From Planctomycetota bacterium (GTDB lineage: Bacteria > Planctomycetota > MHYJ01 > WSZJ01), in assembly GCA_038060895.1 (NCBI GenBank), contig JBBTCT010000035.1, positions 1 through 44,880 on the forward strand: DNA of 44,880 bases. Reading direction: 5' to 3'. Both the position numbers and the translations under genes were made by a program. Positions 20,846 through 44,880 of this stretch are shown here, piece after piece (within the stretch, counting starts at the first letter, position 1; each line of letters begins with the position of its first letter). Below the pieces are notes generated by a model, which saw only the letters and a program-made list of their open reading frames with translations, had not been told where the DNA came from and searched no databases.

Positions 20846-20895
20846 TTGACTTCAGTTCCCGGGCGGCGTATGATGTGAGTGAATGTTCACTCACA
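20846..20895 (+). promoter_or_regulatory. Sigma70 promoter with palindromic operator (copy 1)
   Basis: TTGACT-N17-TATGAT followed directly by the perfect inverted repeat TGTGAGTGAA-TG-TTCACTCACA (20874-20895). Confidence 0.88.
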
Positions 20896-20948
20896 CATCC
20901 GAACGCGCCCCCCGATCCGCCGCTTCCGACCTCCCTGGAGCGCCTCCC

Positions 20949-22685
20949 ATGCCCTGCACCGAACTCACCTTCAAGTCCGTCGACGGCGTCCCCCTCTTCT
21001 ACCGCGCCTGGAACGCTTCCCGCCCCGGCACCCGCGCGGCAATCCTCTTCCATCGCGGCCACGAGCATTCCGGCCGCATGGAGGAAACCGCCGCCGCGCT
21101 CGCGGCCGCCGGTATGGCCGTCTTCGCGTGGGACCAGCGCGGACACGGGAAGTCTCCCGGGGACCGGGGATGGGCGGAGGACCTCGGTGTCTTCGTGAAG
21201 GACGCCGAAGCGTTCGCACGGCACCTCGAGCGAGAGCATGGCGTGCGCATGCAGGAGACGCTCATCCTCGGTTACAGCGTCGGCGCCGTCCTCGCCGCTT
21301 CCTGGATCCACGACTACGCCCCGCCCGTTCGCGGGCTCGTCCTCGCCGCGCCGGCGTTCCGCGTGAAGCTCTACGTCCCGTTTGCGCTCACGGCGCTTCG
21401 GCTGCGGCGACGGATGGGGGGAAAATTCTTCGTGAAGAGCTACGTGAAGAGCCGCTGGGTGACGCACGACCCGGACCAGCAGGACCTGTACGACGCGGAC
21501 CCGCTGATCTTCAGGCAGATCGCGGGCAACATCCTGCTCGACCTGCGCGACGCGAGCGAGCGGCTGATCCGGGACGCGGGGGCGATCGTGGCGCCGACGC
21601 TCGTCCTGTCGGCCGCGCAGGACTACGTCGTCAGCGTCGCAGACCAGAAGCGGTTCTTCGACGGTCTGTCTTCGCCTCTCAAGGAATGGCACCTGCTTTC
21701 CGGGTTCCATCACGCGGTCCTGCACGAACGCGAACGGGCGATGGCGATCGGGATGATCGTGGATTTCGCGAAGCGCTGTTTCGATCGTCCCGCCGGCGAT
21801 GGGGCATCGCTGCTGCAGGCTCACCGCGCGGGATTCACGCAGCGAGAGCATGACGAGCTGAGCACGCCGTTGTCGATCTTCTCGCCGAAGCGCTGGATGT
21901 TCGCCGCGGCGCGCGCCTGGATGCGCACGGTGGGACGGCTGAGCGACGGGATCGCCCTCGGCTGGCGCCGCGGGTTCGACTCCGGCGTGTCCCTCGATCA
22001 CGTCTACCGGGACCGCGCTTCCGGAAGCCTCGGGCTCGGGCGCCTCATCGACCGCGTCTACCTCAACTCGATCGGCTGGCGCGGAATCCGGCGCCGCAAG
22101 CAGAACATGGAATCGCTTCTCGCTTCGGCAATCGCCGAAACCCGCGCCGCGGGGCGACCCGTCCGCATCCTCGACGTCGCGTGCGGAGGCGGCAGGTACG
22201 TGCTGGATGCGCTTCGGCGCGACGGCGCCAACGGCACCACGGCCGTCCTGCGCGACTGGAGCGACGCGTCGGTGCGCCGCGCCACCGACCTGGCGCGCGA
22301 GCTCGGCGTCCCCGGCGTCACGGTCGAGAAGTCGGACGCGTTCGACCGCGCTTCGCTCGAGTCCGTCTCCCCCGCGCCGACGATCGCCATCGTCTCGGGC
22401 CTCTACGAACTATTCGGCGACAACGACCGCGTTCTCGAGTCCCTCAAGGGAATCGCCGCCGCCATGAAAGACGGCGGAGTCCTGCTCTACACGAACCAGC
22501 CGTGGCATCCTCAGCTGGAGATGATCGCCCGCGTCCTCGTCAACCGCGACGGCGCGCCCTGGATCATGCGGCGCCGCACGCAGGCCGAGATGGACCAGCT
22601 CGCGGCTGCGGCGGGGTTCGTGAAACGCTCGATGGAGGTGGACCCATGGGGAATCTTCACGGTGTCGCTGGCCGCGAAGGCGTGA
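20949..22685 (+). CDS. Bifunctional alpha/beta hydrolase / class I SAM methyltransferase, YnbC-like
   Basis: LFHRGHEHSGR, WDQRGHGKSPG, GYSVG nucleophile, then ILDVACGGGRY, IVSGLYELF, YTNQPWHPQLEMIAR; GGAG SD. Confidence 0.88.
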   Translation: MPCTELTFKSVDGVPLFYRAWNASRPGTRAAILFHRGHEHSGRMEETAAALAAAGMAVFAWDQRGHGKSPGDRGWAEDLGVFVKDAEAFARHLEREHGVRMQETLILGYSVGAVLAASWIHDYAPPVRGLVLAAPAFRVKLYVPFALTALRLRRRMGGKFFVKSYVKSRWVTHDPDQQDLYDADPLIFRQIAGNILLDLRDASERLIRDAGAIVAPTLVLSAAQDYVVSVADQKRFFDGLSSPLKEWHLLSGFHHAVLHERERAMAIGMIVDFAKRCFDRPAGDGASLLQAHRAGFTQREHDELSTPLSIFSPKRWMFAAARAWMRTVGRLSDGIALGWRRGFDSGVSLDHVYRDRASGSLGLGRLIDRVYLNSIGWRGIRRRKQNMESLLASAIAETRAAGRPVRILDVACGGGRYVLDALRRDGANGTTAVLRDWSDASVRRATDLARELGVPGVTVEKSDAFDRASLESVSPAPTIAIVSGLYELFGDNDRVLESLKGIAAAMKDGGVLLYTNQPWHPQLEMIARVLVNRDGAPWIMRRRTQAEMDQLAAAAGFVKRSMEVDPWGIFTVSLAAKA

Positions 22686-24022
22686 CCGCCGGCGACGCGC
22701 GTCCCTCCCGGTGGGAAGCGCTCGCCGTGGCCACGGGGTTGTCGATTCTGTTCTTCGCGGTCTACGGGACGTGCAACGCGCTGGCAGCCCGGGCGGGCGA
22801 CGCCGGGGTCATCTGCGCCGAATGGGAACGTCGCATCCCGTTCGTGCCGGCCGCCATCGTCCCGTACTGGTCGATCGACCTGCTGTTCTTCCTCGCGCCG
22901 TTCCTCCTGACGACGCGCCGCGCCCTGCGCACGCACGCGGTGCGCATCGTCGCGGCGACGCTTGCCTCCGGCGTGTTCTTCCTCGTGTTTCCCCTCACGT
23001 TCGCGTGGCCCCGGCCGCCCGTGGACGGCGCCCTCGGCGCGCTGTTCGGCGCCCTCGATACGATGGACGACCCGCACAACCTGTTTCCGTCCCTGCATGT
23101 CGCCTACGCGACGATCCTCTGGCCGGTCTTCGCCACGCTGCGACGCAAGGGTCGCCTCTTCTTCCAGGCCTGCCTCGTCCTGACCGTCGCTTCGACGCTC
23201 TTCACCTGGCAACATCACGTCGCCGACCTCGTCGGCGGTTTCGCCCTCGGGTCGCTGTGCCTCCTGCTGTGGCCCGGAAGCGCCCCCGACGCCGCGCCCG
23301 GCGGACGTCTCCACGCCATTCCGGGCCTGGCGTACCTCGCGGGCTCGGTCGCCTGCATGGCGGCCGCCTTCCTCCTTCCGTCCGCGTGGGGACTGGCGTG
23401 GCCGGCGTTTGCCCTCGCCTGGGTGGGCGCCGCGTACCTCGGTCTCGGCCCCGCGACATTCCGCAAGTCGGGCGGAACTCTGCCGGTCGCGTCGCGCTTC
23501 CTCCTCGCCCCCGTCCTGGCCGGCTCGTGGGTGAACTGGCGCCTTCGCGCGAACGGCCGGCCTCCCTGGTCCGAGATCGCGCCGGGGCTGTTCCTCGGAC
23601 GCGCGCTGACGGAAAGGGAAGCGGCGAAGCTGCTCTCGAGGGGCGTCGTTCGCGTCCTGGATCTCACCGCAGAATTCTCCGCGCCGCGCGCTTTCCGCGG
23701 CATCGCGTACGCAAACTTTCCCGTCCTTGACCTGACGCCGCCGCGTCTCGATCAGATCCAGCAGGCGGTCGAGTTCCTTCGCAGGAGTCCCGGGCCGGCG
23801 TACGTCCACTGCGCGATCGGCCTGGGAAGAAGCGCCGCCATTGCCGCCGCCTGGCTGGTCGCGACGGGCCACGCGAGAACCGTTGAATCTGCCATCGAAT
23901 CCCTGAAGACCGCCAGGCCGGGCGTCGTATTCCCCGAGGCTTCGCGCCTCGTGCTCGAGAGTTTCGCGAGAATGCACTCCGATGCCGTGAACCTGGACTC
24001 CGCGGGCGCGCTTCACTCCTGA
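22682..24022 (+). CDS. PAP2 / dual-specificity phosphatase fusion, YnbD-like
   Basis: WERRIPFVP..IVPYWSID, FPSLH, TWQHHVAD, HCAIGLGRS (HCX5R); GTG start overlaps the upstream stop (GTGA). Confidence 0.88.
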   Translation: MTAGDARPSRWEALAVATGLSILFFAVYGTCNALAARAGDAGVICAEWERRIPFVPAAIVPYWSIDLLFFLAPFLLTTRRALRTHAVRIVAATLASGVFFLVFPLTFAWPRPPVDGALGALFGALDTMDDPHNLFPSLHVAYATILWPVFATLRRKGRLFFQACLVLTVASTLFTWQHHVADLVGGFALGSLCLLLWPGSAPDAAPGGRLHAIPGLAYLAGSVACMAAAFLLPSAWGLAWPAFALAWVGAAYLGLGPATFRKSGGTLPVASRFLLAPVLAGSWVNWRLRANGRPPWSEIAPGLFLGRALTEREAAKLLSRGVVRVLDLTAEFSAPRAFRGIAYANFPVLDLTPPRLDQIQQAVEFLRRSPGPAYVHCAIGLGRSAAIAAAWLVATGHARTVESAIESLKTARPGVVFPEASRLVLESFARMHSDAVNLDSAGALHS

Positions 24023-24056
24023 AGCGCGCCGGGGAGAACCGAGACCGGGAGACAAA

Positions 24057-24731
24057 ATGGACGCTTACGCACCGAAGTCGCGCCGTCCGATCGCCGGCAT
24101 TTTCCGCCGCACGGCGGACTGGGCCGTGAGCGCGTGCGTGAGTCTGGGCATCCACCCGGACACCATCTCCTACGCCTCCATCGTGGCTGCCGCGGGCGCG
24201 GGAGCCTGTTTCTTCTACTCCGGGCGCGTCCCCGCACTGCTCTTCGCCGCCCCGCTTCTCTGCCTCCTGCGTCTCTGGTTCAACATGCTCGACGGCATGG
24301 TCGCCCTCGCTTCCGGCAAAGCCAGCCGGCGCGGCGAGATCGTCAACGAGCTTCCCGACCGCGTGAGCGATGTCCTGATCTTCGCAGGCGTGGCGCACTC
24401 GGGGCTCTGCTGCCCGCTCTTCGGCTACTGGGCGATCATCGGCGCGCTCCTTACGGCGTACGTCGGGGTGCTCGGGCAGGCGGTGGCGGGGAAGCGCGAA
24501 TACGGCGGCGTGATGTCAAAGCAGTGGCGGATGGTGGCGCTGATGGCGGCGTCGGTGGCGGCCGGCGTGCTGGGGTGGCGCGGCCTGACGGACGAGTGGC
24601 GGGGGTGGAGCGTGCTCGACGGCGCGCTCATGCTGGTCATCGCCGGCTCCGTGGAAACGTGCGTCGTCCGGCTCGCGAACACGCTGAGACTTTTGCGCGA
24701 CCGGCCTGCGGCAGGCGGGCCGCGGCCATGA
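24057..24731 (+). CDS. CDP-alcohol phosphatidyltransferase, YnbA-like
   Basis: NMLDGMVALASGKASRRGEIVNELPDRVSD matches the DG(x2)A(x9)G(x6)D(x3)D signature; HPDTIS. Confidence 0.9.
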   Translation: MDAYAPKSRRPIAGIFRRTADWAVSACVSLGIHPDTISYASIVAAAGAGACFFYSGRVPALLFAAPLLCLLRLWFNMLDGMVALASGKASRRGEIVNELPDRVSDVLIFAGVAHSGLCCPLFGYWAIIGALLTAYVGVLGQAVAGKREYGGVMSKQWRMVALMAASVAAGVLGWRGLTDEWRGWSVLDGALMLVIAGSVETCVVRLANTLRLLRDRPAAGGPRP

Positions 24732-25813
24732 GCTTCCTCCGCCGGGCGCCTGCATGGCTTCTCCTCGCCCTCGTGGCGCTCGCTGGCTGCGGTCCCGAAA
24801 AGCGCAATCCGTCGCCGCCCGTGAGCGCCGGGCCGTACGCGTGGCCGTGCCTGCCCGTGAACTGGCGCACGGCCTTCGACAGCCCCGTCTATCGCACCTA
24901 CGCGCTGCTGGTCGGAGGCGCCCTCCTGGCCGGCGCGCTCGGGCTTCTCATCGCGCGTTTCGTCTTCAGGCGCGACGTGGCGAAAATCTGGATCACGTAC
25001 CGCTCGTGGCTCTTCATGGCGCCGCTGGCATTCCTGGTGATCGGGCTCGGCCGCGAAGTCACGATCGTTGCACTGACGGCGCTCTCGGTCCTCGGCGTGA
25101 AGGAATTCGCGCGCGCCACCGGGCTGTACCGCGACTGGTGGATGACGGGCGCCTCCTACCTGGCGATCGTGGCGACCGGCGTCGCAACCCTCGTTGGCGA
25201 CCCGACCTACACGGGACTTCACGGCTGGTGGGGCCTGTTCCTCGCGATGCCTGCCTTCGCGATCACGGTCTTCGTGCTGATCCCGATCCTCCGCGACCGC
25301 GTCGCCGGCCAGCTCCAGTACATCGCCCTCACAATCCTCGCCTTCCTCTACCTCGGCTGGATGTTCGGCCACCTCCCCTGGCTCGCAAACACCAACCACG
25401 CCTACGGCTACCTCCTCTACCTCATCTTCGCCGTCGAGCTCAACGACATCGCCGCTTTCACCTTCGGGAGAATCTTCGGCCGCCACAAACTCCGCCCGGC
25501 CATCAGCCCCAACAAGACCTGGGAAGGCGCCCTCGGCGCCCTCGCCGTCTCGATGGCACTGCCCTGGCTCCTCCGCTTTTCGTTTCCGCACTTCACGCCC
25601 ACCGACCTCATCCTCACCGGCCTCATCGTCGGCGTCGGCGGCCAGCTCGGCGACCTCTCCATCTCCGTCATCAAGCGCGATCTCGGCGTCAAGGACATGG
25701 GCGCCCTCATCCCCGGCCACGGCGGCGTCCTCGACCGCATCGACAGCCTCCTCTACACCGCCCCACTCTTCCTCCACCTCATCCAGAACAGCCATGGAAT
25801 CTACGCCCACTGA
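24728..25813 (+). CDS. Phosphatidate cytidylyltransferase, YnbB/CdsA-like
   Basis: ISPNKTWEG, GDLSISVIKRDLGVKDMGALIPGHGGVLDRIDS signature; ATG 24728 overlaps the upstream stop. Confidence 0.92.
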   Translation: MSFLRRAPAWLLLALVALAGCGPEKRNPSPPVSAGPYAWPCLPVNWRTAFDSPVYRTYALLVGGALLAGALGLLIARFVFRRDVAKIWITYRSWLFMAPLAFLVIGLGREVTIVALTALSVLGVKEFARATGLYRDWWMTGASYLAIVATGVATLVGDPTYTGLHGWWGLFLAMPAFAITVFVLIPILRDRVAGQLQYIALTILAFLYLGWMFGHLPWLANTNHAYGYLLYLIFAVELNDIAAFTFGRIFGRHKLRPAISPNKTWEGALGALAVSMALPWLLRFSFPHFTPTDLILTGLIVGVGGQLGDLSISVIKRDLGVKDMGALIPGHGGVLDRIDSLLYTAPLFLHLIQNSHGIYAH

Positions 25814-26528
25814 CGCCGCCCCGCACGACTGGGTCTACGAGCCCGCCCCCGACCTGGGCGAGTCCCTCGTCGACCGGCTGCGCCGTTTTCCGCGCGAGCC
25901 CGACATGCTCGTCTACGGCGCGCGCGCCCTGGCAGCCATCGCGATCCGCGTCGGGCTCCGCGTGTGGCACCGGCTGGAGATTTCCGGAAGAGAAAACCTG
26001 CCCGCAGAAGGGGCGTTCGTGATGGTTGCGAACCACTCGAGTCACCTCGACACGCTCGCGCTCTTGTCCGCGCTTCCGTTCTCGCGCCTCCACAACGCGT
26101 TCCCCGCCGCCGCCGCCGACACGTTCTTCACTTCGGTCCCGCGAATCGCACTGGCCACGATCGCCATCAATGCGCTTCCGTTTCACCGCAAGACGCGGCA
26201 GAAGAGGAGCCTTGATCTCTGCCGTGGCCTGCTGGGGAACCCGAAGAACGTCCTGATCCTGTTTCCCGAGGGGACGCGCTCCGCGACGGGAGAGATCGGC
26301 GAGTTCAAGCCGGGCATCGGCCTGCTGCTCGCGGGAAGCGACATCCCCGTAGTCCCCTGCCGGATCGAAGGAGCTCACGCCGCCTGGCCGCGACACGCCT
26401 GCATCCCGCGGCCGCGGAAGCTCCGCCTCCGGATCGGCACGCCCCGTAGCTACGCCGATCTGCCGCGCGGGCGCGAGTCGGCCGAATGGATCGCGGAGGA
26501 GTTGCGCAGCGCGGTGCTGGAAGCCTGA
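25794..26528 (+). CDS. Lysophospholipid (1-acyl-sn-glycerol-3-phosphate) acyltransferase family
   Basis: ANHSSHLD (HX4D), FPEGTRS, FKPG motifs. Confidence 0.92.
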   Translation: MESTPTDAAPHDWVYEPAPDLGESLVDRLRRFPREPDMLVYGARALAAIAIRVGLRVWHRLEISGRENLPAEGAFVMVANHSSHLDTLALLSALPFSRLHNAFPAAAADTFFTSVPRIALATIAINALPFHRKTRQKRSLDLCRGLLGNPKNVLILFPEGTRSATGEIGEFKPGIGLLLAGSDIPVVPCRIEGAHAAWPRHACIPRPRKLRLRIGTPRSYADLPRGRESAEWIAEELRSAVLEA

Positions 26529-26555
26529 CCGGCCATTTCGCGTTCGCTGAACTGC

Positions 26556-27560
26556 CTACCCCAGGACGTGCGTCAACATCGCCCGCTGCCCGTGAATCCG
26601 GTTCTCCGCCTCGTCGATGATCAGGCACTTCTTCGAGTCGGCGACCTCGTCGGTCATCTTGACGTTGCGGCGCATCGGGAGGCAGTGGCTCACCCAGGCG
26701 TCGTTGGTCATCTTCATTTTGTGGGCGTCGACAATGAAGTGCCGGTGCGGCTCGCGGATCGCCTTCTCCTCTTCCCAGCGCCCGAAGTAGTCGAGGCGGC
26801 CCCAGCTCTTGCAGTAGACGAAGTCCGCGCCCCCGTACGCCTTCGAGATCTCGTCGGTGACCGTGACGGTCCCGCCCTGCGCCCTCGCGTTCTCGCGCGC
26901 CTGGTCCATGAACATCGGGTCGAGGTCGTACCCGGGCGGGCGCAGCACGGTGAGGTTCATGCCCATCTTCGTCGAGATCAGCGCCGCCGAGTTCGCGACC
27001 GCCGTGTTCAGCCCCTTCGGGTGGAACGTCCACGTCAGCAGGAACTTCTTCCCGTCCGTCTTCTTCATCTTCTCCTTCATTGTCAGCGCCATCGCCAGCT
27101 CCTGGCACGGATGCACGATCGTTTCCATGTTGATCACGGGGACGCCCGCGTACCGCTCGATCGCGCGCAACATCGAGTCCTGTTTGTCGACCGTCCAGTC
27201 CTGGAACTTCGGGAAGCACCGCACGCAGACCGCGTCAAAAAAACGCCCCAGCACCCGCGCCGCATCCTTCACGTGCTCCTCCGCCTCGCCGTCCATCGCG
27301 ATCCCCTCGCGCCACTCCATCGCCCATGCGTCCTTCCCGGGCTGAAGCGTCACCGCGTGCCCGCCGAGTTGCCACGCCGCGAGCTCGAACGAAGACCGCG
27401 TGCGCAACGACGGGTTGAAGAACAGCAGGGCGAGCCTCGGCTTCGACTTGAGCGGCTTCCAGCCCTTTTTCTTTTGAAGAGCGGCGGTCGCGAGGATCTG
27501 CTCGATTTCGCGGCGCGTGAAATCCTGGGTGCAGAGAAAGTTGCGGCCTTTGAGGGACAT
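26556..27560 (-). CDS. argF: N-acetylornithine carbamoyltransferase (ArgF'/AOTCase)
   Basis: FNPSLRTR, MDGEAEEHVKD, HPCQE, WTFHPKGLNTAVANS, SHCLPMRRNVK motifs distinguish AOTCase from canonical OTCase. Confidence 0.88.
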   Translation of the reverse strand: MSLKGRNFLCTQDFTRREIEQILATAALQKKKGWKPLKSKPRLALLFFNPSLRTRSSFELAAWQLGGHAVTLQPGKDAWAMEWREGIAMDGEAEEHVKDAARVLGRFFDAVCVRCFPKFQDWTVDKQDSMLRAIERYAGVPVINMETIVHPCQELAMALTMKEKMKKTDGKKFLLTWTFHPKGLNTAVANSAALISTKMGMNLTVLRPPGYDLDPMFMDQARENARAQGGTVTVTDEISKAYGGADFVYCKSWGRLDYFGRWEEEKAIREPHRHFIVDAHKMKMTNDAWVSHCLPMRRNVKMTDEVADSKKCLIIDEAENRIHGQRAMLTHVLG

Positions 27561-27903
27561 GATGAGGTTGTCCGTGATTGGGGAAGCGGCGGATGATAAC
27601 GGTGATGTCGAGGAACGCGAAATGAGCGTGCTCGGGCGCGTCGGCGATGGCAGCGCTGGATCCCCGAACGACCTCCTGCGACCGCCGGCTGCCCTCGCAG
27701 CCCTTCTTCGCGCAGCTCGCCAACATCCTGCAAGTATCGCTCGCAACGGCGAGGCGTTGGGAGGAAGGGACCGGTGGTCGTCCCGGCCCGCGCGCTGCTG
27801 TCGCAGTTGCTTTGACCACCCCCCGGCGCTTTCTCAGATTCTGCGGAACTCGAGTCCATTCCAGGACGTCCAAGGACGTCACCATTGCCCCGGAGCCACC
27901 GAC

Positions 27904-29058
27904 ATGATGCGCACGCGCCCGCACCCCTTCCTGTCCTGCCTTCTTGCCGCCTCGGCGATCGTGACTCCGGCCTGGGCCGACGATGGGGACGACCTCGAGG
28001 AGCCTGCCGGGCGACGGCCGGCGGCCGGTGAGGAAGGCGCGCCCGGGTTCGCTCCTCGCGACCGGAAGGAGAACATGGAGCGCGGTCCCGTCCAGGAGCT
28101 TGTGTACACCCGGTCGGACGTGAAGGCTTCCGAGGAGAAGGTGGCGGCGATTCCGGGTGGATTCGTGATTCGCGAAGGAAAGGCGTTCGCCCGGTACGAC
28201 GCCGCGGGGAAGAACCGGAAGGTCGTGTGCGAGGTTGAAGGAAAAGTGGCGGACTGGCTGGTGGCCAGCGACGGGATCCGCTTCGTGGTTTCTGCGGACG
28301 GACGCGTCTATTCCACGTTGTTGGACGGCGGGGGCGAAGTCGAACTCGGGAAGACGGCCGGCGGCCCCCTTTCCTGCTCGACAGGCGGGTGGATCGCGTT
28401 CGCGGACGAGAAGGGCGGCGCGGTGTCGGTTTCTCCCGATGGCAAGACGACGCGCCGCGCAACCGTCCCGGCCGGCTTGAAGGTGACCGCGGCCGGAGCT
28501 TCGGCGGACGGCCAGCGCCTCTTCGCTCTCCTCGCCCCCGTGGCCGACGCCGCGGCGACTGCGATGGGAGCGGCGGATTTCGCGGGGAACGCGGACGTCG
28601 AATTGAAAGTCGTCCACAGCGAAGCGCAGGCGACGCTTCACGGCCTCGCGGTCGTCGCCCCGAAATCGCGGCTCGTCTCGCGCCGCGTCCCGACGGCCGG
28701 CCCGGCCGCGATGGAAAGCGTCCTCTCGATCGATCCCGACGGTGGGAAGGAGTTCACTCTAGCGACGGCCGCGAAACTCGGCGATCCCTCGCTGGCCCCC
28801 GGCGGCGGGCTGGTCTGGTTCGCGGGGAAGGGCGTGAACGGGCGCATGAAGGTCTGGCGTTCGGAAGCGCAGCCGAGCGGAACCGTGAATACCGCCCGCG
28901 GCATCGTTGACTGCCACGAGCTCTTTTCGTTCCCGGACACCGATTGCCTGGCGCCGGCGTGCCTCTGGAAAGATCCCGCGATGCTCTTCCTCGAAAAGGG
29001 CGCCGACGGGGTCGCCAAAGTCGTCCGCGTGACCTGGAAGCCCGCGCTGGTCAAGTAG
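27904..29058 (+). CDS. Exported hypothetical protein, probable beta-propeller
   Basis: Signal peptide ending PAWA; repeated SxDG turns (ASDG, SADG, SPDG); GGAG SD. Confidence 0.55.
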   Translation: MMRTRPHPFLSCLLAASAIVTPAWADDGDDLEEPAGRRPAAGEEGAPGFAPRDRKENMERGPVQELVYTRSDVKASEEKVAAIPGGFVIREGKAFARYDAAGKNRKVVCEVEGKVADWLVASDGIRFVVSADGRVYSTLLDGGGEVELGKTAGGPLSCSTGGWIAFADEKGGAVSVSPDGKTTRRATVPAGLKVTAAGASADGQRLFALLAPVADAAATAMGAADFAGNADVELKVVHSEAQATLHGLAVVAPKSRLVSRRVPTAGPAAMESVLSIDPDGGKEFTLATAAKLGDPSLAPGGGLVWFAGKGVNGRMKVWRSEAQPSGTVNTARGIVDCHELFSFPDTDCLAPACLWKDPAMLFLEKGADGVAKVVRVTWKPALVK

Positions 29059-29104
29059 GTTCGGTGGTAGCCTGTCGCCGCTTCTCATTCGCGGAGACTG
29101 AACC

Positions 29105-29416
29105 ATGTCCGTGCTGCTCGAGTTCTCGATGTCGCCGCTCGACAAAGGGGAGTCCGTAGGAAAGTACGTTGCCCGTAGTCTCGCCATCATCGACCGCTCG
29201 GGCGTCCCGTACCGCCTGAATCCGATGGGCACGGTGCTGGAAGGGAACTGGGACGAGGTGATGGAGGTCGTGAAGCGCTGCTACACCGCGATGTCGAAGG
29301 ACTGCCGCCGCGTCTCCTGCTCCATCAAGGTCGATGCGCGAAAGGGGAAGGACGGCAGGATCGATTCGAAGGTGAGGAGCGTTGAGAAAAGGCTCCAGCG
29401 CAGGTTGCGCGGGTAA
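29105..29416 (+). CDS. Thiamine-binding protein, MTH1187/YkoF-like family
   Basis: LEFSMSPLDKGESVGKYVA...YRLNPMGTVLEG...RIDSKVRSVE. Confidence 0.9.
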   Translation: MSVLLEFSMSPLDKGESVGKYVARSLAIIDRSGVPYRLNPMGTVLEGNWDEVMEVVKRCYTAMSKDCRRVSCSIKVDARKGKDGRIDSKVRSVEKRLQRRLRG

Positions 29417-29452
29417 GGGCCCGCCCGTCGTTGCTGGTATGCTCCTTTGCCC

Positions 29453-34545: not shown

Positions 34546-34552
34546 TGACCCC

Positions 34553-36484: not shown

Positions 36485-36538
36485 TCTCCTTCCGCCGCGT
36501 GCGCCGCGGGGGGGCAGGGCACCGGCACGCGCCGGCTG

Positions 36539-37621
36539 CTACCCGTTCAGTGCGGGGTAGTCCGTGTATCCCTTTTCTCCCGCCGAGTAGAACGTCTTCA
36601 TGTCGGCCTCCGTGAGCTTCGCGCCCGTCCGCAGGCGCTCGGGGAGGTCGGGATTGGCGAGGAAGGGTCGTCCGAAAGCAATGAGGTCGCCGCGTCCGGC
36701 GGCGAGGTCCTGGTTGGCGCGCTCGAGCGTGTATCCGCCGGAGAGAATCGTCGCGCCCTTGAACGCCGCCCGCATCCGGTCGACGGTCGCCGGATCGACC
36801 TTTGGCGCGCCCATCGAAGTGTGGTCGACGATGTGCAGGCAGGCGAGGCCGAGGCCGCCCAACTCTTTCGCGAGCGACGTGTAGACGGCGTCGATTTCGG
36901 GGAAGGGCGCGATGTCGTTGAACACGCCATAGGGCGACAACCGGATCCCGACGCGGTCCTTGCCGATCGCGGCGGCCACGCCGGCCGCAACTTCGAGGGC
37001 GAAGCGGCTCCGCTTTTCGATCGTCCCGCCGTAGGCATCGTCGCGGCGATTCGAGCCCGGGTTGATGAACTGCTCCATCAGGTAGCCGTTCGCGGAGTGC
37101 AGCTCGACGCCGTCGAATCCTGCTTCCCGCGCGTTCTTCGCGCCCTGCACGAATTCGCGGATCGCGGTCTTGATGTCTTCGAGCGTCATCTCGCGCGGCA
37201 CGGGGTGCGGCTGAAGCCCCTCCTGGTCCGTGAACATTTTCCCCTTCGCCACGACCGCCGACGGCCCGACGATCTCGGCGCCGGCCGGGAGGTTGAGCGG
37301 ATGCCCGACGCGTCCGGTGTGCATGATCTGCAGGAAGATCCGGCCGCCCTTCGCGTGCACGGCCGCGGTCACTTCCTTCCAGCCCGCCACCTGCGCCGGC
37401 GAGTAAATCCCGGGGATGCGCGCGTAACCTAGGCCATTCGGCGAAGGCGACGTCCCTTCCGTGACGATGAGGCCTGCGCTCGCCCGCTGGGCGTAATAGG
37501 TCGCGACGATCGGGCCCGGAATGTTCCCGATCGAGCGGCTCCGCGTCATCGGGGACATCACGATGCGATTGGGAAGGGTCAGCGGGCCGAGCGTGAAGGG
37601 AGCGAAGACGTTGATGGCCAT
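36539..37621 (-). CDS. Alkene reductase, old yellow enzyme (NemA-like) family
   Basis: NRIVMSPMTRSR, YYAQRASAGLI, ELHSANGYL, FGRPFLANPDL, GYTDYP. Confidence 0.93.
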   Translation of the reverse strand: MAINVFAPFTLGPLTLPNRIVMSPMTRSRSIGNIPGPIVATYYAQRASAGLIVTEGTSPSPNGLGYARIPGIYSPAQVAGWKEVTAAVHAKGGRIFLQIMHTGRVGHPLNLPAGAEIVGPSAVVAKGKMFTDQEGLQPHPVPREMTLEDIKTAIREFVQGAKNAREAGFDGVELHSANGYLMEQFINPGSNRRDDAYGGTIEKRSRFALEVAAGVAAAIGKDRVGIRLSPYGVFNDIAPFPEIDAVYTSLAKELGGLGLACLHIVDHTSMGAPKVDPATVDRMRAAFKGATILSGGYTLERANQDLAAGRGDLIAFGRPFLANPDLPERLRTGAKLTEADMKTFYSAGEKGYTDYPALNG

Positions 37622-37661
37622 GGTGCGGTGTCCTTTTTGAAGCGGTCCTGGGGCGCGGATG

Positions 37662-38915
37662 CTACCTCGACAGGGCGGCGGCGTAAAATCCGTCGGTGCC
37701 GTGACGGACCGGGTCGATGGAAAGGTCGCCGCGCGTCAAGAGGCCATCGGGTTTGACGCCGGCCCGCCGCAGGATCGCCGCGGCGTCGGCGCGACGGAAG
37801 TCGGCATGCTCGCGCAGGAACCGAGCTATCTGCTTCTCGCCCTCGACCGGGAGAAGCGAGCATACGGCGTACACGAGCCGGCCGCCCGGTTTCACGAGCG
37901 GCGCGTAGGCCGCAAGCAGTCGCGCCTGCTCTTCGACGAGCCGCGGGATGTCTTCCTCGCGCAGCTTCCAGGCGATGTCCGGGTTGCGGCGCAGCACGCC
38001 GGTGCCGGAACACGGCGCGTCGATGAGGACGACGTCGGCCTTGCCATGGAGTCGCTTGAGCAACCCCGGATCGCTTTCCAGCAGCTGGACACGCACGTTC
38101 TGCGCCCCGGCGCGGGCGGCGCGCTCGCGCAGTTCGTCGAGGCGGAAGGCGGCAGTGTCGAAAGCGTGGAGCGTGCCCCGGTTTTCCATCATCGCCGCGA
38201 GCGCGAGTGTTTTGCCGCCTGCGCCCGCGCAGCCGTCCACGACGACGTCCGCGGACCCCGGCGCGCAGAGGAACGCGACCAGCTGGCTGCCCTCGTCCTG
38301 CATCTCGAACATTCCCTGGCGGAACGCCTCCGTGCGGAAGACATTCGCGCGGTCCTCGAGCGTCATTCCCAGCGGCGAGAAACTTGCCGGCTGCGCGGCG
38401 ATCCCTTCCTGCCACAGCCATTCCGCGAGCTCGCGGGGCGAAATTTTCAGCGTGTTGGCGCGAAGCGTCACCGGCGGTTCCGTCGCGAACGAACGTAGCA
38501 GCTCGTGTCCCCCCGGGAGCATTCGCTTCATCCACTCCGGGACGAATGCATCGATTCCGCCAGTCTCCCTTTCTCCGGCGGCGATTGCGCCGCCCAGCCC
38601 CGCGGCGCGCGGCCCGACCGTCAGCCCGCGCCGCGCCCGCAGGAACACAAGCACCGCGTCCTCGTCGCGCCCCCGCGAGACATGCCTCATCGCCGCTTCC
38701 ACGAACCCGCGCGCACGCAGCATCCCCTGCACCACGTCCGCCAGGAACCCGCGTGCTTCTCCCGCCAGCCGGCCGTCTTCGCGGAACGCCCGCGCGATCA
38801 CCTTGTCCGGCGCGCCGGGCGCGTCCAGGCAGGCGCGATAGGTCGCGCCGCAAGCGCCGATGAGCCAGCGGGGCGGAAGCGGCGGACGGCGGGTGGGGCG
38901 GGATTTCCGTGGCAT
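37662..38915 (-). CDS. RsmB/NOP family RNA m5C methyltransferase
   Basis: LRANTLK, QDEGSQLVA, DGCAGAGGKT, DAPCSGTGVLRRNPD, YAVCS, TDGFY. Confidence 0.92.
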   Translation of the reverse strand: MPRKSRPTRRPPLPPRWLIGACGATYRACLDAPGAPDKVIARAFREDGRLAGEARGFLADVVQGMLRARGFVEAAMRHVSRGRDEDAVLVFLRARRGLTVGPRAAGLGGAIAAGERETGGIDAFVPEWMKRMLPGGHELLRSFATEPPVTLRANTLKISPRELAEWLWQEGIAAQPASFSPLGMTLEDRANVFRTEAFRQGMFEMQDEGSQLVAFLCAPGSADVVVDGCAGAGGKTLALAAMMENRGTLHAFDTAAFRLDELRERAARAGAQNVRVQLLESDPGLLKRLHGKADVVLIDAPCSGTGVLRRNPDIAWKLREEDIPRLVEEQARLLAAYAPLVKPGGRLVYAVCSLLPVEGEKQIARFLREHADFRRADAAAILRRAGVKPDGLLTRGDLSIDPVRHGTDGFYAAALSR

Positions 38916-38956
38916 CAGGGGCGAGATGCTAAGGACAGGGAGCGCCGCGCGAAAGG

Positions 38957-40186
38957 TCAGGGTTTCAGCGCGATCTTCGCGAGGGGCGCCCCGGAGAAGT
39001 CCCTTCGGGTCTCGACCCATTCGAGCGCGACGCGAAGCGTTCGCTTCACGTCGCCCTGGAACGCCGGTTCGCCTTCAACCAGGACGGTAACGGGCTTGTC
39101 GAGATCGACGAGCGCGTCCGAGAGCACGATCTCCGCGGGGCGCGCGCCGGAGATCCTGATCTCGTTTCCCTCGACTTTGGCCGTGAACGCGGCCGTGGCG
39201 GATTTCGAGGACGGATCGATCCAGAAGAATCCGCCTTCGGTCCGCGCGCCGTCGCGGCTCCAGCGGACGTCCTTCGACCAGAAAGTGCGCGGCCGCACTG
39301 CGAGCCACGCCAGCGACTTGTCGCACTCGTCGGCGTAGACGTCGTGGCCGCCTTCCTTCTCGACGATCTGGAGCGGTCCGCCGGCTTCCTTCAGCCTCTC
39401 GCTGTTCTTGCGGCCGGTGGAGAGGAAGAACTCGTTGTCCTTCTTCCCGAGCACGTGATAGACGGCGAAATTCCAGGCGTTTTTCAGCCGGTCGCCGTGC
39501 TCCATCCCGCACACGAACGGCGCGATTCCCGCGAAGAGGTCCGCGTTCGGCGGGCCGACCATGAAGGAGCCGACGCCGCCGGCCGAATGCCCCACGAGAA
39601 ACAGGCGCGACCGGTCCACGCTCCAACGCTTCGCCGCCGCTTCGATCGTCTCCATCACGATCCGCGTGGGGTCGCCGATCCAGCCCGGTGAGCAGAGAAT
39701 CAGCTTTTGCTTTGCGGCGGGGCCGGTCCAGTACGAGTGTTCCTGCGGAGCGGTCACGAACGCAGTCTTGAAGTCGGGGGCGGGGCCCCCATGAAGCGCG
39801 ATGGCGAGCCCGGGCGGCTTGTCCTTTCCGGGCTTGTATCCCGGCGGAAGCTGAAACCAGGCCTTCGTCGTCTCGCCGTCCTTGCCGGTCGGAACTTCCA
39901 GGACGCCGGAGTTCGTCTTGTCGGTGAGGAACGGGTTTCCGGCGGAGAGCGTGTTGAGGAGCGCCTGCGCCTGAGCCTTCGTCAGCGGCCGGTCGAGCAC
40001 GTCGCGCGACTCGAGCGCCTTGCGCACGTCGTCGCGCGCCTTGCCCTCCGCCCAGAGCCATGCCGGCGCGAGGCGGATCGCTTCCGCAAGTTCCCTGGCG
40101 GATTGCGCTTCGGACTTCTTCGGAGCTTCTTCCGCTGCAGCTGCGAGCGCTAGCAGGGGCAGAAGGACGACGGTCATCAGTCGCAT
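38957..40186 (-). CDS. Exported alpha/beta hydrolase (esterase/peptidase-like)
   Basis: Signal peptide; IALHGG oxyanion motif, GHSAGG nucleophile, GKKD and GGH triad positions. Confidence 0.8.
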   Translation of the reverse strand: MRLMTVVLLPLLALAAAAEEAPKKSEAQSARELAEAIRLAPAWLWAEGKARDDVRKALESRDVLDRPLTKAQAQALLNTLSAGNPFLTDKTNSGVLEVPTGKDGETTKAWFQLPPGYKPGKDKPPGLAIALHGGPAPDFKTAFVTAPQEHSYWTGPAAKQKLILCSPGWIGDPTRIVMETIEAAAKRWSVDRSRLFLVGHSAGGVGSFMVGPPNADLFAGIAPFVCGMEHGDRLKNAWNFAVYHVLGKKDNEFFLSTGRKNSERLKEAGGPLQIVEKEGGHDVYADECDKSLAWLAVRPRTFWSKDVRWSRDGARTEGGFFWIDPSSKSATAAFTAKVEGNEIRISGARPAEIVLSDALVDLDKPVTVLVEGEPAFQGDVKRTLRVALEWVETRRDFSGAPLAKIALKP

Positions 40187-40299
40187 GGCTCACTTCCTGA
40201 ATCTGGCCGCGGTAGCCTCACCCGATGCTACGCCGTGACGGGGCGGGGGATTCCAGGAAAGCGCGACTTGCGCTGAAACCCGTTTTCTGCAGGGAGCGC

Positions 40300-40348
40300 T
40301 TGACTCTCAATCAGCGGCGGTTTAGAATGTGAGTGAGCGTTCACTCGC
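40300..40348 (+). promoter_or_regulatory. Sigma70 promoter with palindromic operator (copy 2)
   Basis: TTGACT-N17-TAGAAT followed directly by GTGAGTGAGCGTTCACTCGC (40329-40348), 17/20 identical to copy 1 and in the same position. Confidence 0.85.
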
Positions 40349-40435
40349 TATCTGGGTTCCTTCGACTTTCGGTCTTCCGTCCCTACAATGCCCGCGCATC
40401 GGTCGCTTCCGGCTCCCATTCCGAGGGATTTCCAG

Positions 40436-41839
40436 ATGCCCGACCTCGCCCCGCCGCTCGCCGAGACCATTCCGATCGACCAGCGCCTTGGGTTGCCGCC
40501 GCGCCAGGCAAGGCTTTACAACAAGCTGCCCGACGGCCGCGTCCAGTGCTTCCTCTGCCCCCGCCACTGCAACCTCGCGCCGGACCGGTATGGATTCTGC
40601 AAGGTCCGCAAGAATCTCGACGGCGAACTCGTCACCCTGAATTACGGCGTCTCAGTCCAGCTCACCGAGGAAGTTATCGAGACCGAAGCGGTGAATCACT
40701 TCCGCCCCGGCGCGCGCATCCTCTCGCTCGGAAACGTCGGGTGCATGATGCGCTGCGAGTTCTGCCAGAACTGGGCGACGTCGCAGGCGGCGTACGTGCG
40801 AGAAGAGGACGTCCGCCGGTACACGCCGGAAGAAGTCGTCGAGACGGCGCTGGCCCACGGCATCGGCGTGCTCTCATGGACCTACAACGACCCCGTCGTC
40901 TGGCACGAGTTCGTGATCGACACGGCACGGTTGGCGCGGAAGCACGGCATTCTCAACCTCTTCAAGTCCGCGTTCTACATCGGGCCCGAAGCCGTCGACG
41001 AACTCCACGAAGTCATCGACATCTTCAGCCTGTCGCTCAAGTCGATGGACCCGGTTTTCTACACGAAGATGACCCGGGCACGGCTGGAGCCTGTCCTTGA
41101 GGCCATCAAACAGGTGCGGCGGTTCGGCGATTGCCACCTGGAAATCAGCAACCTCCTGGTCACGGGCGCCAACGACACGCTCGCAGACGCGGAAAAAGTC
41201 GCGCGCTGGATGCTCGACGAACTGGGCGACGATGTCCCGCTGCACTACGTTCGCTTCCATCCAGCGTTCGAGTACACCGCCGTCGGCCGTACGGACATCG
41301 GCCTGCTGAAGGCAGCGCGCGAGCAGGCGTTGCAGATGGGCGTGAAGCACTGCTACCTAGGCAACGTTTTCGAAACGGGCCCGTGGTCCGACACGGCCTG
41401 CCGGAAGTGTGGCGAGATCCTGGTGAAGCGGTTCGGGCTGCGCTCGTCAACGCCGGGGCTCGACGGGGAAGGGCACTGCCGCGGGTGCGGCGGGAAGTCG
41501 TCGGTGACGGTCGCGCCGGCGGGAGCCGCGCCGAAGGTGTCGGCCGCGACGTTCCCGCGGCAGATCACGCGCCTCTGGTCGGGAGAGATCGGCTCCGGTC
41601 ACGTGGAAGTCCTGAACCTGACGGATTCGCCGCAATCTGTCGTCCTGCGCCGCGACCTGCGGGACCAGGCGGGCGAAGTCATCCCGCTCCGGCCCGGCGA
41701 GCAGTGGCGCTTCCTTGTCTCCCGCGAGCGCCCCGATTCTCCCGGCGTCGCACTTCATCACACGGACGGCGTCCGCGTGGACTGCTGGGACGTCCTCGAT
41801 CGCGCGCATTTCCCCACCGCGCAGGAGATGAACCGATGA
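40436..41839 (+). CDS. Radical SAM enzyme, AmmeMemoRadiSam-like, with C-terminal extension
   Basis: N-terminal CFLCPRHC...GFCKVR, CMMRCEFCQNW (CxxxCxxC), WTYNDP, RFHP, YLGNV, CRKC and CRGC; GAGGG SD before ATG 40436 (alternative 40388). Confidence 0.88.
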   Translation: MPDLAPPLAETIPIDQRLGLPPRQARLYNKLPDGRVQCFLCPRHCNLAPDRYGFCKVRKNLDGELVTLNYGVSVQLTEEVIETEAVNHFRPGARILSLGNVGCMMRCEFCQNWATSQAAYVREEDVRRYTPEEVVETALAHGIGVLSWTYNDPVVWHEFVIDTARLARKHGILNLFKSAFYIGPEAVDELHEVIDIFSLSLKSMDPVFYTKMTRARLEPVLEAIKQVRRFGDCHLEISNLLVTGANDTLADAEKVARWMLDELGDDVPLHYVRFHPAFEYTAVGRTDIGLLKAAREQALQMGVKHCYLGNVFETGPWSDTACRKCGEILVKRFGLRSSTPGLDGEGHCRGCGGKSSVTVAPAGAAPKVSAATFPRQITRLWSGEIGSGHVEVLNLTDSPQSVVLRRDLRDQAGEVIPLRPGEQWRFLVSRERPDSPGVALHHTDGVRVDCWDVLDRAHFPTAQEMNR

Positions 41840-42981
41840 ATCCGGAAACCCGCCTGCTTCACCGGAAAGTGCCCGTCGCGGGCGCCCACCCGAACGTCAC
41901 GCCGCTCTTCCAGTGCAGCTCGTTCTTTTCCGATTCGGAATGGTTCTACTCGCGCAAGTCGAACCCGAACGTCGACGAGCTGGAAGCGGCGGTCCGGGAC
42001 ATCGAAGGGTGTGCGCACGCGGTCGCGGTGGCGACGGGAATGGCGGCGCTCACGATGGCGCTTCGGCTGCTCAAGCCGGGCGACCGGCTTGCTGCGAACG
42101 CGCTCATCTACGGGTGTTCGTACCGGCTGTTCGCGGACTTCTGCGCGCACTACGGGATCGGCTTCGACGTCCTCGATTTTACGGACCCCGCCGCCGTGAG
42201 CGCGGGGATCCGGCCCGGCACGCGCATGGTCATCTTCGAGACGCCGACGAATCCGCTTCTGCGCACGGTCCCGATCGAGGCAGTCGCGCGCGAGGTCCGC
42301 GCCGCGGCGCCCGGGGCGCTGGTCGTCGTGGACAACACGTGGGCGACGCCGCTGTTCCAGAAGCCGCTCGCGCTCGGCGCCGACCTGTGCGTCGTCAGCG
42401 CCACGAAGTTCTTTTCCGGCCACAGCGACGTCATGGGCGGGCTCGTCACCACGGACCGCGCCGACCTGGCCGAGGAGATCCGGAAGATCCGTTTCTATTC
42501 CGGCTCGAACCTGGACCCGCATTCGGCGTGGCTCCTGCGACGCAGTCTGCAGACGTTCCCGATCCGCATGCGCGCGCACGCCGCGACCTTCGGGGAGATG
42601 GCGGCACACCTGCGGTCGCACCCCCGCGTCCGCCGGGTGTACGTCCCGGAAGTCGACGGCCGGCAGCTCGCGTCGTACGGCGGGATTCTCTTCATCGAAC
42701 TCGACCCGGCGCTCGAGCCCGCGGTCGAGGCGTTCATGGATTCGCTGAAGCTGTTCGAGCGCGGGACTTCGATGGCGAGCGTCGTCTCCGCGGTGGCGCA
42801 GCCGTGGAGCGGGAGCCACCTGTCCATGACCGCCGAAGAAAAGCTCGGCGCGGGGATCGGGAAAACGCTCGTGCGGCTCTGCTTCGGGCTCGAGGATCCG
42901 GCCGATCTCAAGGCCGACCTGACGCAGGCGCTCGACAAGGCCGGCGTAACGCCGCCCGCCGCCGCGGGAGTCAAAGCATGA
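41836..42981 (+). CDS. PLP-dependent Cys/Met metabolism enzyme (cystathionine gamma-synthase/lyase fold)
   Basis: YSRKSNP, ATGMAA, FETPTNP, VDNTWATP, SATKFFSGHSD (PLP Lys), VRLCFGLED; ATGA overlap. Confidence 0.88.
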   Translation: MNPETRLLHRKVPVAGAHPNVTPLFQCSSFFSDSEWFYSRKSNPNVDELEAAVRDIEGCAHAVAVATGMAALTMALRLLKPGDRLAANALIYGCSYRLFADFCAHYGIGFDVLDFTDPAAVSAGIRPGTRMVIFETPTNPLLRTVPIEAVAREVRAAAPGALVVVDNTWATPLFQKPLALGADLCVVSATKFFSGHSDVMGGLVTTDRADLAEEIRKIRFYSGSNLDPHSAWLLRRSLQTFPIRMRAHAATFGEMAAHLRSHPRVRRVYVPEVDGRQLASYGGILFIELDPALEPAVEAFMDSLKLFERGTSMASVVSAVAQPWSGSHLSMTAEEKLGAGIGKTLVRLCFGLEDPADLKADLTQALDKAGVTPPAAAGVKA

Positions 42982-43760
42982 AGCGGCTGCTGCCTCTCGC
43001 CGTGTTCCCCGCCGTGCAGATCGCGTGCTTCGTCGGCGCGGGTCTCACCTGGCGGGAGTTTCCGTGGCTCGCGGGGGGACTCTTCGCCCTCTCGGTCCTC
43101 GCGCTCGACCTGACCGTGCACATTTTCCTGCACGAGTGCATCCACGCGACGCGACCTGAAGGGATGTCGTGGACGGGTTCGTTCGCGCTGACCCTGGTCG
43201 GCGGGATGCCGTTCGACGGGTACCGCCTTCACCACTACAACCACCACCGCAACGACAACGGCCCGGGAGACTGGTCGACGACATGGGCCTGGGATGCCGC
43301 GGGCGGCCGGCGGCCGCGACGCCGCTTCGCGTACGTTCTGGGGTGGCCCGCCGCGCTCGCCCGCGCCCGCGTCGCGGTGCGCGCGGAAGCGAAGGCCGGG
43401 CTGATTTCCGCCGGGATTCAACGCCGCCTGCGCTGGGAGAAGATCTTCCTCGGCGTTGCGATCATCGCCCTGGCCGCGGCCGACTGGCGCTGGGCGCTCG
43501 GGTACGTCGCGATGGTCTACGGCGGCTGGGCCCTCGTGTCCGTCCACAATTTCGGCCAGCACCTGCCGATCGAAGGCCACGATCCGGCGACGAGTTTCGA
43601 GTCGCGCCTCTACAACGCGCTGCTCTTCAACAATGGCCTCCACGCCGAGCACCATGCAGACCCCGCGAAGGCCTGGTACGAAGTGAAGCCGGACCCGTCG
43701 CACCCGCGCGCCCGGGGTCCGCATCTGGTGGCGGCGTTCCGCGGGGTGGGGAAGCGATGA
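42978..43760 (+). CDS. Membrane di-iron fatty acid desaturase/hydroxylase family
   Basis: His boxes HECIH, HHYNHH, HAEHH plus TM segments; ATGA overlap. Confidence 0.85.
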   Translation: MKRLLPLAVFPAVQIACFVGAGLTWREFPWLAGGLFALSVLALDLTVHIFLHECIHATRPEGMSWTGSFALTLVGGMPFDGYRLHHYNHHRNDNGPGDWSTTWAWDAAGGRRPRRRFAYVLGWPAALARARVAVRAEAKAGLISAGIQRRLRWEKIFLGVAIIALAAADWRWALGYVAMVYGGWALVSVHNFGQHLPIEGHDPATSFESRLYNALLFNNGLHAEHHADPAKAWYEVKPDPSHPRARGPHLVAAFRGVGKR

Positions 43761-44512
43761 CCGGGGAAGCCTTCACACACATCCTCGAGCACGGCTCGCC
43801 GCGCCTGGCGTCGGTCGCGGTGCTGGCGGCGTGCGTCGCCGGGAGCTGGCTGACTCGAAGGGACGCGCGCGGATGGCCGCTGTCGCGCTCCCAGCGCGCA
43901 GGCCTGTTCGCTTCGATTCTCATCGCAGGCTTCGCCGGATGCGCGATTCCCGCGTTTCTCGCGGGCGACGTGATCGGTTCGGCAGCGCTGCTCGAATGGC
44001 GGGGCCCGAAGACGATTCTCGGCGGCATTCTCGGCGGATTCGCCGGCGCGACCGCCTTCAAGGCGCTGGCGCGCATCTCGTACGACACCAGCGACGCCTT
44101 CGCCCGTGGCACCTGCCTCATGCTCGCCATCGGCCGCCTCGGCTGCGCCGCCCGCCACTGCTGTTTCGGCATCGAAGTTCCCTCCTGGGCCGGCTGGGAC
44201 CTCGGCGACGGCGTCCAGCGCCTCCCGGTGCAGGTCCTGGAAGCCGCGCTCGTGTTCGGCCTGTTTTTGTTCCTCAACCATCTGCACCGCCGGGGTCTCG
44301 CTCACAACCGGCGCTTCTTCGTCTTCCTCCTCGGCTACGGACTCACGCGCTTCTCCCTTGAATTCCTGCGCGAGCAAGTCGCCGGCGGGTGGCTCGGGCT
44401 CGGGTTCTACCAGTGGCTAGCGCTGGCCACGGCGGGCGTCGGGGCGTTCCAGATCGTGAAGCGGTCTCCACGGCCGGCGGCGGTCGAGACGTGCGAAGGG
44501 ACGGCGGCATGA
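43757..44512 (+). CDS. Prolipoprotein diacylglyceryl transferase (Lgt)-like membrane protein, divergent
   Basis: KTILGGILGG, AIGRLGC...CCFG, PVQVLEA, YGLTRFSLEFLR, YQW; ATGA overlap. Confidence 0.75.
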   Translation: MTGEAFTHILEHGSPRLASVAVLAACVAGSWLTRRDARGWPLSRSQRAGLFASILIAGFAGCAIPAFLAGDVIGSAALLEWRGPKTILGGILGGFAGATAFKALARISYDTSDAFARGTCLMLAIGRLGCAARHCCFGIEVPSWAGWDLGDGVQRLPVQVLEAALVFGLFLFLNHLHRRGLAHNRRFFVFLLGYGLTRFSLEFLREQVAGGWLGLGFYQWLALATAGVGAFQIVKRSPRPAAVETCEGTAA

Positions 44513-44880
44513 AGCGCGTGCGATTCGAATATGCGGGTCCCGTCGCGGAGCTTGTCTCGCGCCAGATCATGGGCGAGGCGATTCCTGGATTTCACCGGCG
44601 GGCGCTCGCGGGTGCCACTGTGAGTGGAAGCGCCGATTGGGTCGTGCGGCTCGGGGAGAATCTGTTGTTCGACGCAGGCGGCCTGCAACTCCTGGCCGCG
44701 GCGCTGGCTCGCTACGAAGGCCCGGCGGACCGCCTCGAGGTTCACCTCGTTCCCGACCCGATCGCCGCGCGCGACTACTACGGCCTTCAGTCCGGCCTGA
44801 ATCCCGACGGCACGGTCCGGCTTCCCGCGGAAGCCTTCCGAGTCACTCCGCCCCCCCGCCCCCCCCCCCCCGCCCCCCCC
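44509..44880 (+). CDS. Hypothetical protein, truncated by the right edge
   Basis: ATGA overlap with the Lgt-like stop; open frame MKRVRFEYAGPVAELVSRQIMGEAIPGFH... to the end of the window. Confidence 0.6.
   Translation, partial: MKRVRFEYAGPVAELVSRQIMGEAIPGFHRRALAGATVSGSADWVVRLGENLLFDAGGLQLLAAALARYEGPADRLEVHLVPDPIAARDYYGLQSGLNPDGTVRLPAEAFRVTPPPRPPPPAPP

Follow-up and report, generated by a model that had tools for sequence, protein, structure and literature searches.

Two operons in one stretch of planctomycete DNA raise the question whether genes lying far apart, and with separate predicted roles in lipid metabolism, answer to the same repressor. The stretch, here called the window, comprises 44,880 nt (positions 1-44880 of contig C35) from a Planctomycetota assembly of 5.42 Mb with 65.8% guanine plus cytosine (GC) in 47 contigs. 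It carries a five-gene operon related to Escherichia coli ynbABCD (operon 1) and the beginning of an operon headed by a radical S-adenosylmethionine (SAM) enzyme gene (operon 2). A first-pass annotation of the window had proposed that one TetR-family repressor, encoded elsewhere, acts on similar palindromes in front of both. Based on comparative sequence analysis we consider it likely that both palindromes are operators of one TetR-family repressor, that its gene is a candidate on contig C2, and that the repressor would be released by a lipid-like ligand.

A small set of operators and a candidate repressor gene

The promoters of the two operons have identical -35 hexamers, 17-nt spacers and palindromes that abut the -10 hexamer and are identical at 17/20 positions, exactly as first annotated (Table 1). 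Allowing up to three mismatches, the palindrome pattern did not occur elsewhere in the window (4 strand-matches in total), in comparison to a mean of 0.14 matches in shuffled windows, and none of 100 shuffles reached 4. A sigma-70 consensus scan of positions 20600-40500 on both strands returned three promoter-like sites, two of which were the promoters P(ynb) of operon 1 and P1 of operon 2. As the palindrome is located immediately after the -10 hexamer, it is expected to cover the transcription start. The hexamer GCGGCG had also been pointed out correctly in both window spacers. This hexamer is common in the 66% GC genome (2.7 per kb per strand), and its sharing therefore carries little weight; it was seen in three of seven promoter spacers (C1:515901, C35:20875 and C35:40329), at most three bases from the 3' end before the -10, against about 0.03 expected per spacer, in an observation made post hoc.

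With a position weight matrix (PWM) built from 43 sites of the genus, exactly eight sites were found in the whole genome. These scored 32.8-38.0 bits and the next best match scored 16.0, leaving a gap of at least 16.8 bits. At seven of the eight, TTGAC[A/C/T] is followed after exactly 17 nt by [T/G]AnnAT, which abuts the palindrome. The motif is over-represented and lies at promoters in all cases except one. The earlier idea of two co-controlled operons held in so far as both carry the operator, but the regulon is wider than these two.

One site (C2:65543) lies before a TetR-family gene of 194 aa (C2 65575-66159), and a further copy lies behind the same gene. A repressor gene outside the window had been predicted, and the search for a TetR gene carrying the same site led to this candidate. 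Its product has an N-terminal helix-turn-helix (PF00440, TetR_N, E value 3.9e-18) and an all-helical C-terminal domain. The tetR operator abuts the -10 hexamer and ends 13 nt before the start codon here, and 13-29 nt before it in six other genomes of the genus. The other predicted targets are moaC together with a 1158-aa fusion of LplT, acyltransferase and acyl-acyl carrier protein (ACP) synthetase (LplT-Aas), which scores above the NCBIfam cutoff for acyl-[ACP]-phospholipid O-acyltransferase; the gene for a 1464-aa membrane protein and, next after it, that for a GDSL lipase; and the genes for two small proteins, one secreted (155 aa) and one of 177 aa. The eighth site is located 74 nt past the TetR stop codon, where the next reading frame begins, and the genes behind it encode a B12-binding radical SAM enzyme, DUF2157 and GDYXXLXY.

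The motif with at most one mismatch was present in all eight genomes of the genus (3-8 sites each), which according to their record titles are all metagenome assemblies. In 23 genomes from other families of the class it was found in one, as a single match, and the reversed-motif control gave 0 matches in all 31 genomes. A TetR orthologue (70-89% identity) was identified in 7/8 genus genomes, and tetR with both flanking sites likewise in 7/8. No TetR orthologue was found among 48 other genomes of the class, one of which has a 34% match. The operator precedes moaC-lplT/aas in 5/8 genomes, the gene for the 1464-aa protein in 4/8 (one at 41% identity) and that for the 155-aa protein in 2/8. In G006 the operator of operon 2 is also conserved, 87 nt before the start, and all seven genes of the operon are syntenic (58-90% identity). 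Additional targets were species-specific, namely an EptA-like transferase, a Rieske oxygenase, an Rce1-like protease with an extracytoplasmic function (ECF) sigma factor, BacA, and a hydrolase with a CoA-enzyme activase.

The operator located behind tetR (G000, this genome, C2 66160-66253; L002 6161-6254) has features of its own. It is found 41-124 nt past the stop codon in seven genus genomes, after a linker that is poorly conserved and of variable length. It contains an internal GTG in frame with the downstream membrane-protein reading frame, and several genomes have a short stem with a T-rich loop just before it. This operator may serve as a roadblock or as a looping partner. At another target, moaC, a molybdenum-cofactor gene, is the first gene after the operator and is overlapped by LplT-Aas (G000 C9 160656-164691; L003 4657-8692). 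The pairing is kept in five genus genomes (also L016, L019, L023 and L029).

Relation to Bacillus FadR and to TetR homologues of other phyla

By profile, fold and operator layout, the nearest characterised relative of the candidate TetR is Bacillus FadR (YsiA). A profile of 57 sequences matched B. subtilis FadR best (3whb, E value 1.4e-22), with 1vi0 and B. halodurans FadR next. The structure model made from the same 57-sequence alignment had a predicted local distance difference test (pLDDT) score of 91.7 and 9-10 helices, and replaced an earlier model from seven close orthologues (pLDDT 68.5). Foldseek gave at least 500 TetR-fold matches in the PDB, of which the top eight were all Bacillus FadR with template modelling (TM) scores of 0.80-0.84. 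The FadR structures compared were PDB 3whb, 3whc, 1vi0, 5gp9, 5gpa and 5gpc. Sequence identity to FadR is only about 20%.

According to the B. halodurans FadR report (PMC5397183), the operator of that protein, with the halves GATGAATGAAT and ACTCATTCAT, contains two 16-bp repeats with a 4-bp offset, on which two dimers bind; each monomer reads ATGA(A/G)T via Gly42 and Tyr45, and long-chain acyl-coenzyme A (acyl-CoA) releases the protein. The FadR operator (ATGAATGAAT and ACTCATTCAT) and the one described here (GTGAGTGAAC and GTTCACTCAC) are both 20-bp elements of 10+10 positions with tandem NTGA repeats; the half-sites are identical at 7/10 positions and every difference is a transition. Similarly, the logo of the 43 sites resolved into inverted tandem (A/G)TGA(A/G)T repeats over 20 bp, as in B. 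halodurans FadR. The two base-contacting residues of the recognition helix are retained as Gly45 and Tyr48, which are invariant in 57/57 sequences. Both regulators are autoregulated, which for the present TetR is predicted from the operator on its own promoter. The targets differ, however, with lipid assembly, re-acylation and envelope genes here and beta-oxidation genes for FadR.

Additionally, we scanned one genome per species for more distant homologues, which gave 80 loci. Six were orthologues from the genus, in records labelled as uncultured Planctomycetia or Planctomycetota (one Brocadiia), and 74 were TetRs of 27-41% identity from Alpha-, Delta- and Gammaproteobacteria, Acidobacteriota, Acidimicrobiia and Bacteroidota. 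Counting sites above 14 bits from 200 bp upstream to 250 bp downstream of the TetR gene, the palindrome was found beside the gene in 36/74 distant loci, on both sides in 14 of them, and the remaining 500,634 bases contained six matches. Some of these loci have perfect sites, for example L074 of Pelagibius. In five genomes of other phyla, the motif with at most two mismatches was essentially present at the tetR locus only. Two extra 2-mismatch matches in these five genomes look like chance, as the reversed control also gave 2 in one genome. From this near-exclusive position, the homologue in other phyla appears to act locally, as a repressor at one or two sites. The subfamily is small, with 312 representative clusters at E <= 1e-30 in comparison to 139,657 TetR-like matches at E <= 0.001.

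The neighbours of the distant TetRs were also of interest for the targets (72 proteins scanned). An LplT-Aas fusion is encoded directly downstream at 10 loci, and according to record titles tetR-lplT/aas is found in isolate genomes of the Alphaproteobacteria Magnetospirillum, Pelagibius and Telmatospirillum. A B12-binding radical SAM gene with DUF4070 was seen at two loci, one of which, from Acidobacteriota, is 50% identical to that of the present genome. A radical SAM gene of about 306 aa lies downstream at 7 or more deltaproteobacterial loci, with a divergent flavin mononucleotide (FMN) reductase confirmed in two. One locus combines a cytidine diphosphate (CDP)-alcohol transferase with an acyltransferase, and the other neighbours include hydrolases, a FabH-like enzyme, NAGPA and tripartite ATP-independent periplasmic (TRAP) transporters.

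A single TetR repressor with a conserved palindrome before many lipid-metabolism operons is known from mycobacteria, where KstR is described in this way (PMC1995591). KstR controls the catabolism of a host lipid, whereas the targets found here look biosynthetic or concerned with remodelling, and the present regulon is small, with eight sites, and varies between species. In searches of open-access main texts, we came across no publication that gives the motif or a regulon of this kind.

To our knowledge, gene regulation in Planctomycetota is very poorly understood. The findings offer a concrete predicted repressor-operator pair with a crisp eight-site regulon in this phylum. They would also tie gene sets without known function to membrane-lipid homeostasis, including ynbCDAB, the B12 radical SAM/DUF2157/GDYXXLXY genes, the radical SAM/pyridoxal phosphate (PLP)/desaturase/Lgt-like cluster and the 1464-aa membrane protein.

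Proposed mechanism and competing explanations

In the repressed state, TetR would occupy the 20-bp site that starts immediately after the -10 hexamer, probably as two dimers by analogy with Bacillus FadR. Bound in this way it would block RNA polymerase at seven promoters, namely those of tetR itself (autoregulation), the two window operons, moaC with LplT-Aas, the 1464-aa protein with the GDSL lipase, and the two small proteins. Release of the repressor would be triggered by a small molecule of lipid-like nature. In this planctomycete genus the repressor appears to have been recruited to several accessory envelope-lipid operons, the two of the window among them. Strong comparative evidence makes it likely that the operator is real and bound by the candidate TetR, with binding and repression both inferred from sequence. 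Taken as a whole, this appears to be a genuine repressor regulon of a conventional kind that governs membrane-lipid genes. The likeness to FadR and the association with lplT-aas together point to an acyl-chain metabolite as ligand, which we slightly favour, and not clearly to acyl-CoA, which as the specific ligand we regard as rather unlikely.

Several observations weigh against this account. In the genome G005 (81% complete) three sites are present and no TetR was found. On the protein side, the TetR scores 55.8 bits with the NCBIfam equivalog for FadR (NF053878), against a cutoff of 200. The residues said to anchor CoA in B. subtilis FadR are Arg116, Asn120, Arg150, Arg153, Glu162 and Tyr174; by manual reading of the alignment these are mostly replaced here (P at 120, and D, Q, R and G at 150, 153, 162 and 174), and only a nearby arginine, R118, is kept. 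None of the eight sites precedes a gene with an acyl-CoA dehydrogenase, enoyl-CoA hydratase or thiolase domain, and no promoter could be recognised upstream of the eighth site. The first-pass annotation had expected the operator to be kept in orthologous promoters, and this was found for four target groups in the genus but not for operon 2 in G007, where the orthologue (73% identity) has no operator despite the presence of TetR and of other sites. Finally, the promoter-like element that lies 3' of operator 2 suggests that repression of operon 2 may be partial.

The G005 genome would fit a reading in which another, unnamed DNA-binding protein binds the palindrome, with the neighbouring TetR gene as just another gene under its control. 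We hold this to be quite improbable: the palindrome travels with homologues of the TetR across several phyla, in five such genomes it is essentially confined to the tetR locus, and its layout matches that of the operator of the closest solved relative, FadR. A perfect 20-nt palindrome could also fold in RNA as a hairpin of the 5' untranslated region, and a promoter-plus-palindrome unit repeated seven times might be a copied mobile promoter cassette without a dedicated regulator. The palindrome is, however, fixed in position relative to the -10 hexamer and not to the start codon, which is 11 to 88 nt away, the expected transcription start lies inside it, and asymmetric variants occur in both orientations. 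Spacers and flanks have a mean pairwise identity of 0.31-0.38 in comparison to 0.275 expected; this is near random, so only the functional elements are shared and the mobile cassette was rejected. Taken together, the hairpin and cassette explanations are the least probable of those considered.

The first-pass annotation had also suggested that the two operons are halves of one pathway building a single unusual lipid. Both carry the operator in this genome, and their domain contents could complement each other, with head-group and acyl assembly in one and tailoring in the other. The co-occurrence check spoke against this suggestion, which we now consider improbable. Among 401 sampled Planctomycetota genomes, a YnbC-type gene was present in 5 and an orthologue of the radical SAM enzyme in 4, and the two overlapped in this genome only. 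The carriers of operon 2 (G006, G007, G008 and G401) have no YnbC orthologue, and the closest match, in G008, is partial at 29%. None of the 7 other genus genomes yielded operon 1, and the same operator would also control unrelated targets. Before orthologues of either operon outside the TetR lineage no operator was seen, with best PWM scores below 0 (L136-L141, L045 and L010). As the operons were not found together in any other genome of this sample, they appear to be independent accessory modules that in this genome have each come under a common switch.

Returning to the TetR repressor as the regulator of both operons, a broader role can be put forward tentatively. The small FadR-related subfamily and its near-invariant operator might form a conserved multi-phylum switch that responds to some membrane-lipid intermediate, which need not be acyl-CoA, and governs genes for lipid repair and remodelling (lplT-aas, B12-radical-SAM and ynb-type head-group genes), and that in this genus has grown into a flexible regulon capturing newly acquired lipid operons. 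If such a switch exists, the regulon would be a guide to the functions of the ynbCDAB, B12 radical SAM/DUF2157/GDYXXLXY and radical SAM/PLP/desaturase/Lgt-like clusters. As the same pair adjoins lplT-aas in alphaproteobacterial isolates, the ligand and the logic of the switch are open to bench testing.

Gene content of the two window operons

Genes were called by codon usage and domains were assigned with Pfam and NCBIfam. The domain content of both operons agreed with what had been annotated at first, and the ynb naming was backed by BLASTP against E. coli K-12 (Table 1).

Table 1. Positions of promoters, operators and genes of operons 1 and 2 in the window.
Feature	Position	Strand	Evidence or remark
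Promoter P(ynb): TTGACT 20846-20851, 17-nt spacer, TATGAT 20869-20874	20846..20874	+	10/12 consensus matches
Operator 1, GTGAGTGAATGTTCACTCAC, perfect 20-bp palindrome, first base right after -10	20875..20894		PWM 37.6 bits
YnbC homologue, alpha/beta hydrolase + Methyltransf_20, first gene	20949..22685	+	Pfam; 47% identity over full length to E. coli YnbC
YnbD homologue, PAP2-like membrane part + dual-specificity phosphatase	22646..24022	+	35% identity to E. coli YnbD
YnbA-like CDP-alcohol phosphatidyltransferase	24057..24731	+	27% identity to E. coli YnbA, E value 5e-13
YnbB/CdsA-like cytidylyltransferase	24728..25813	+	30% identity to E. coli YnbB
PlsC-type acyltransferase, last gene	25794..26528	+	Pfam; following gene convergent
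Operon 2 promoter P1: TTGACT 40300-40305, 17-nt spacer, TAGAAT 40323-40328	40300..40328	+	10/12 consensus matches
Operator 2, GTGAGTGAGCGTTCACTCGC, directly after -10	40329..40348		PWM 33.2 bits
Second, weaker promoter-like element, TCGACT-16-TACAAT, 3' of operator 2	40362..40389	+	sigma-70 scan
Radical SAM enzyme, AmmeMemoRadiSam type	40436..41839	+	TIGR04337, 291 bits, cutoff 220
Cys/Met-metabolism PLP enzyme, gamma-lyase/synthase family	41836..42981	+	Pfam, NCBIfam
Short FA_desaturase-family membrane protein	42978..43760	+	Pfam
Lgt-like transferase	43757..44512	+	below NCBIfam equivalog cutoffs
Gene 5 start, hexapeptide-repeat protein, runs off window	44509..44880	+	

All four proteins of E. 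coli ynbABCD have homologues in operon 1, a single cluster of five genes spanning 20949-26528. In comparison to the E. coli genes, the order here is C-D-A-B, and a PlsC-type acyltransferase and the TetR operator are additional. A literature search on the function of ynbABCD gave nothing useful. YnbB is presumably tied to the glycolipid MPIase, a link for which we found no paper.

Upstream of operon 1, the reading frames 20254-20727 and 20648-20830 overlap and stop 16 nt 5' of its -35 hexamer; neither had a Pfam match. They may stem from a gene with a frameshift or from a wrong gene call, and transcription might continue from them into operon 1. The stretch 20700-40650 was also compared with two DNA runs and two metatranscriptome runs, all kept as contigs. 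The metatranscriptome runs reached 17 and 18 of 30 bins with scattered contigs at a depth of 0-2.3, which was indistinguishable from carried-over DNA and allowed no starts or ends to be read.

Operon 2 starts at 40436, its genes overlap by 4 nt, and it extends beyond the window end. The seven genes encode a radical SAM enzyme, a PLP enzyme, a desaturase, an Lgt-like transferase, a hexapeptide-repeat protein and two small proteins, and Pfam and NCBIfam did not resolve the function of the operon. The neighbours of the radical SAM gene are thus the PLP enzyme, desaturase and Lgt-like genes and not AMMECR1 or Memo, partners that were not searched for elsewhere; a paralogue of the radical SAM enzyme (32% identity) is encoded elsewhere in the genome. 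The core of the second promoter-like element, CCCTACAATGCCCGC (40380-40394), is present before the radical SAM gene in this genome, G006 and G007, is kept with or without the TetR operator (L037, L045), and was not seen in G008.

On contig C1 (L001 7986-9898) the operator is closely preceded, on the same strand, by another B12-binding radical SAM gene and by one for a DUF1559 protein. DUF1559 is typical of Planctomycetota. At the window end, gene 5 aligns with its 389-aa orthologue in G006 over residues 1-109 and then, in another frame, over residues 122-387. The frame changes between C35 44841 and 44907 (L134 4842-4908), by either a frameshift or an assembly error.

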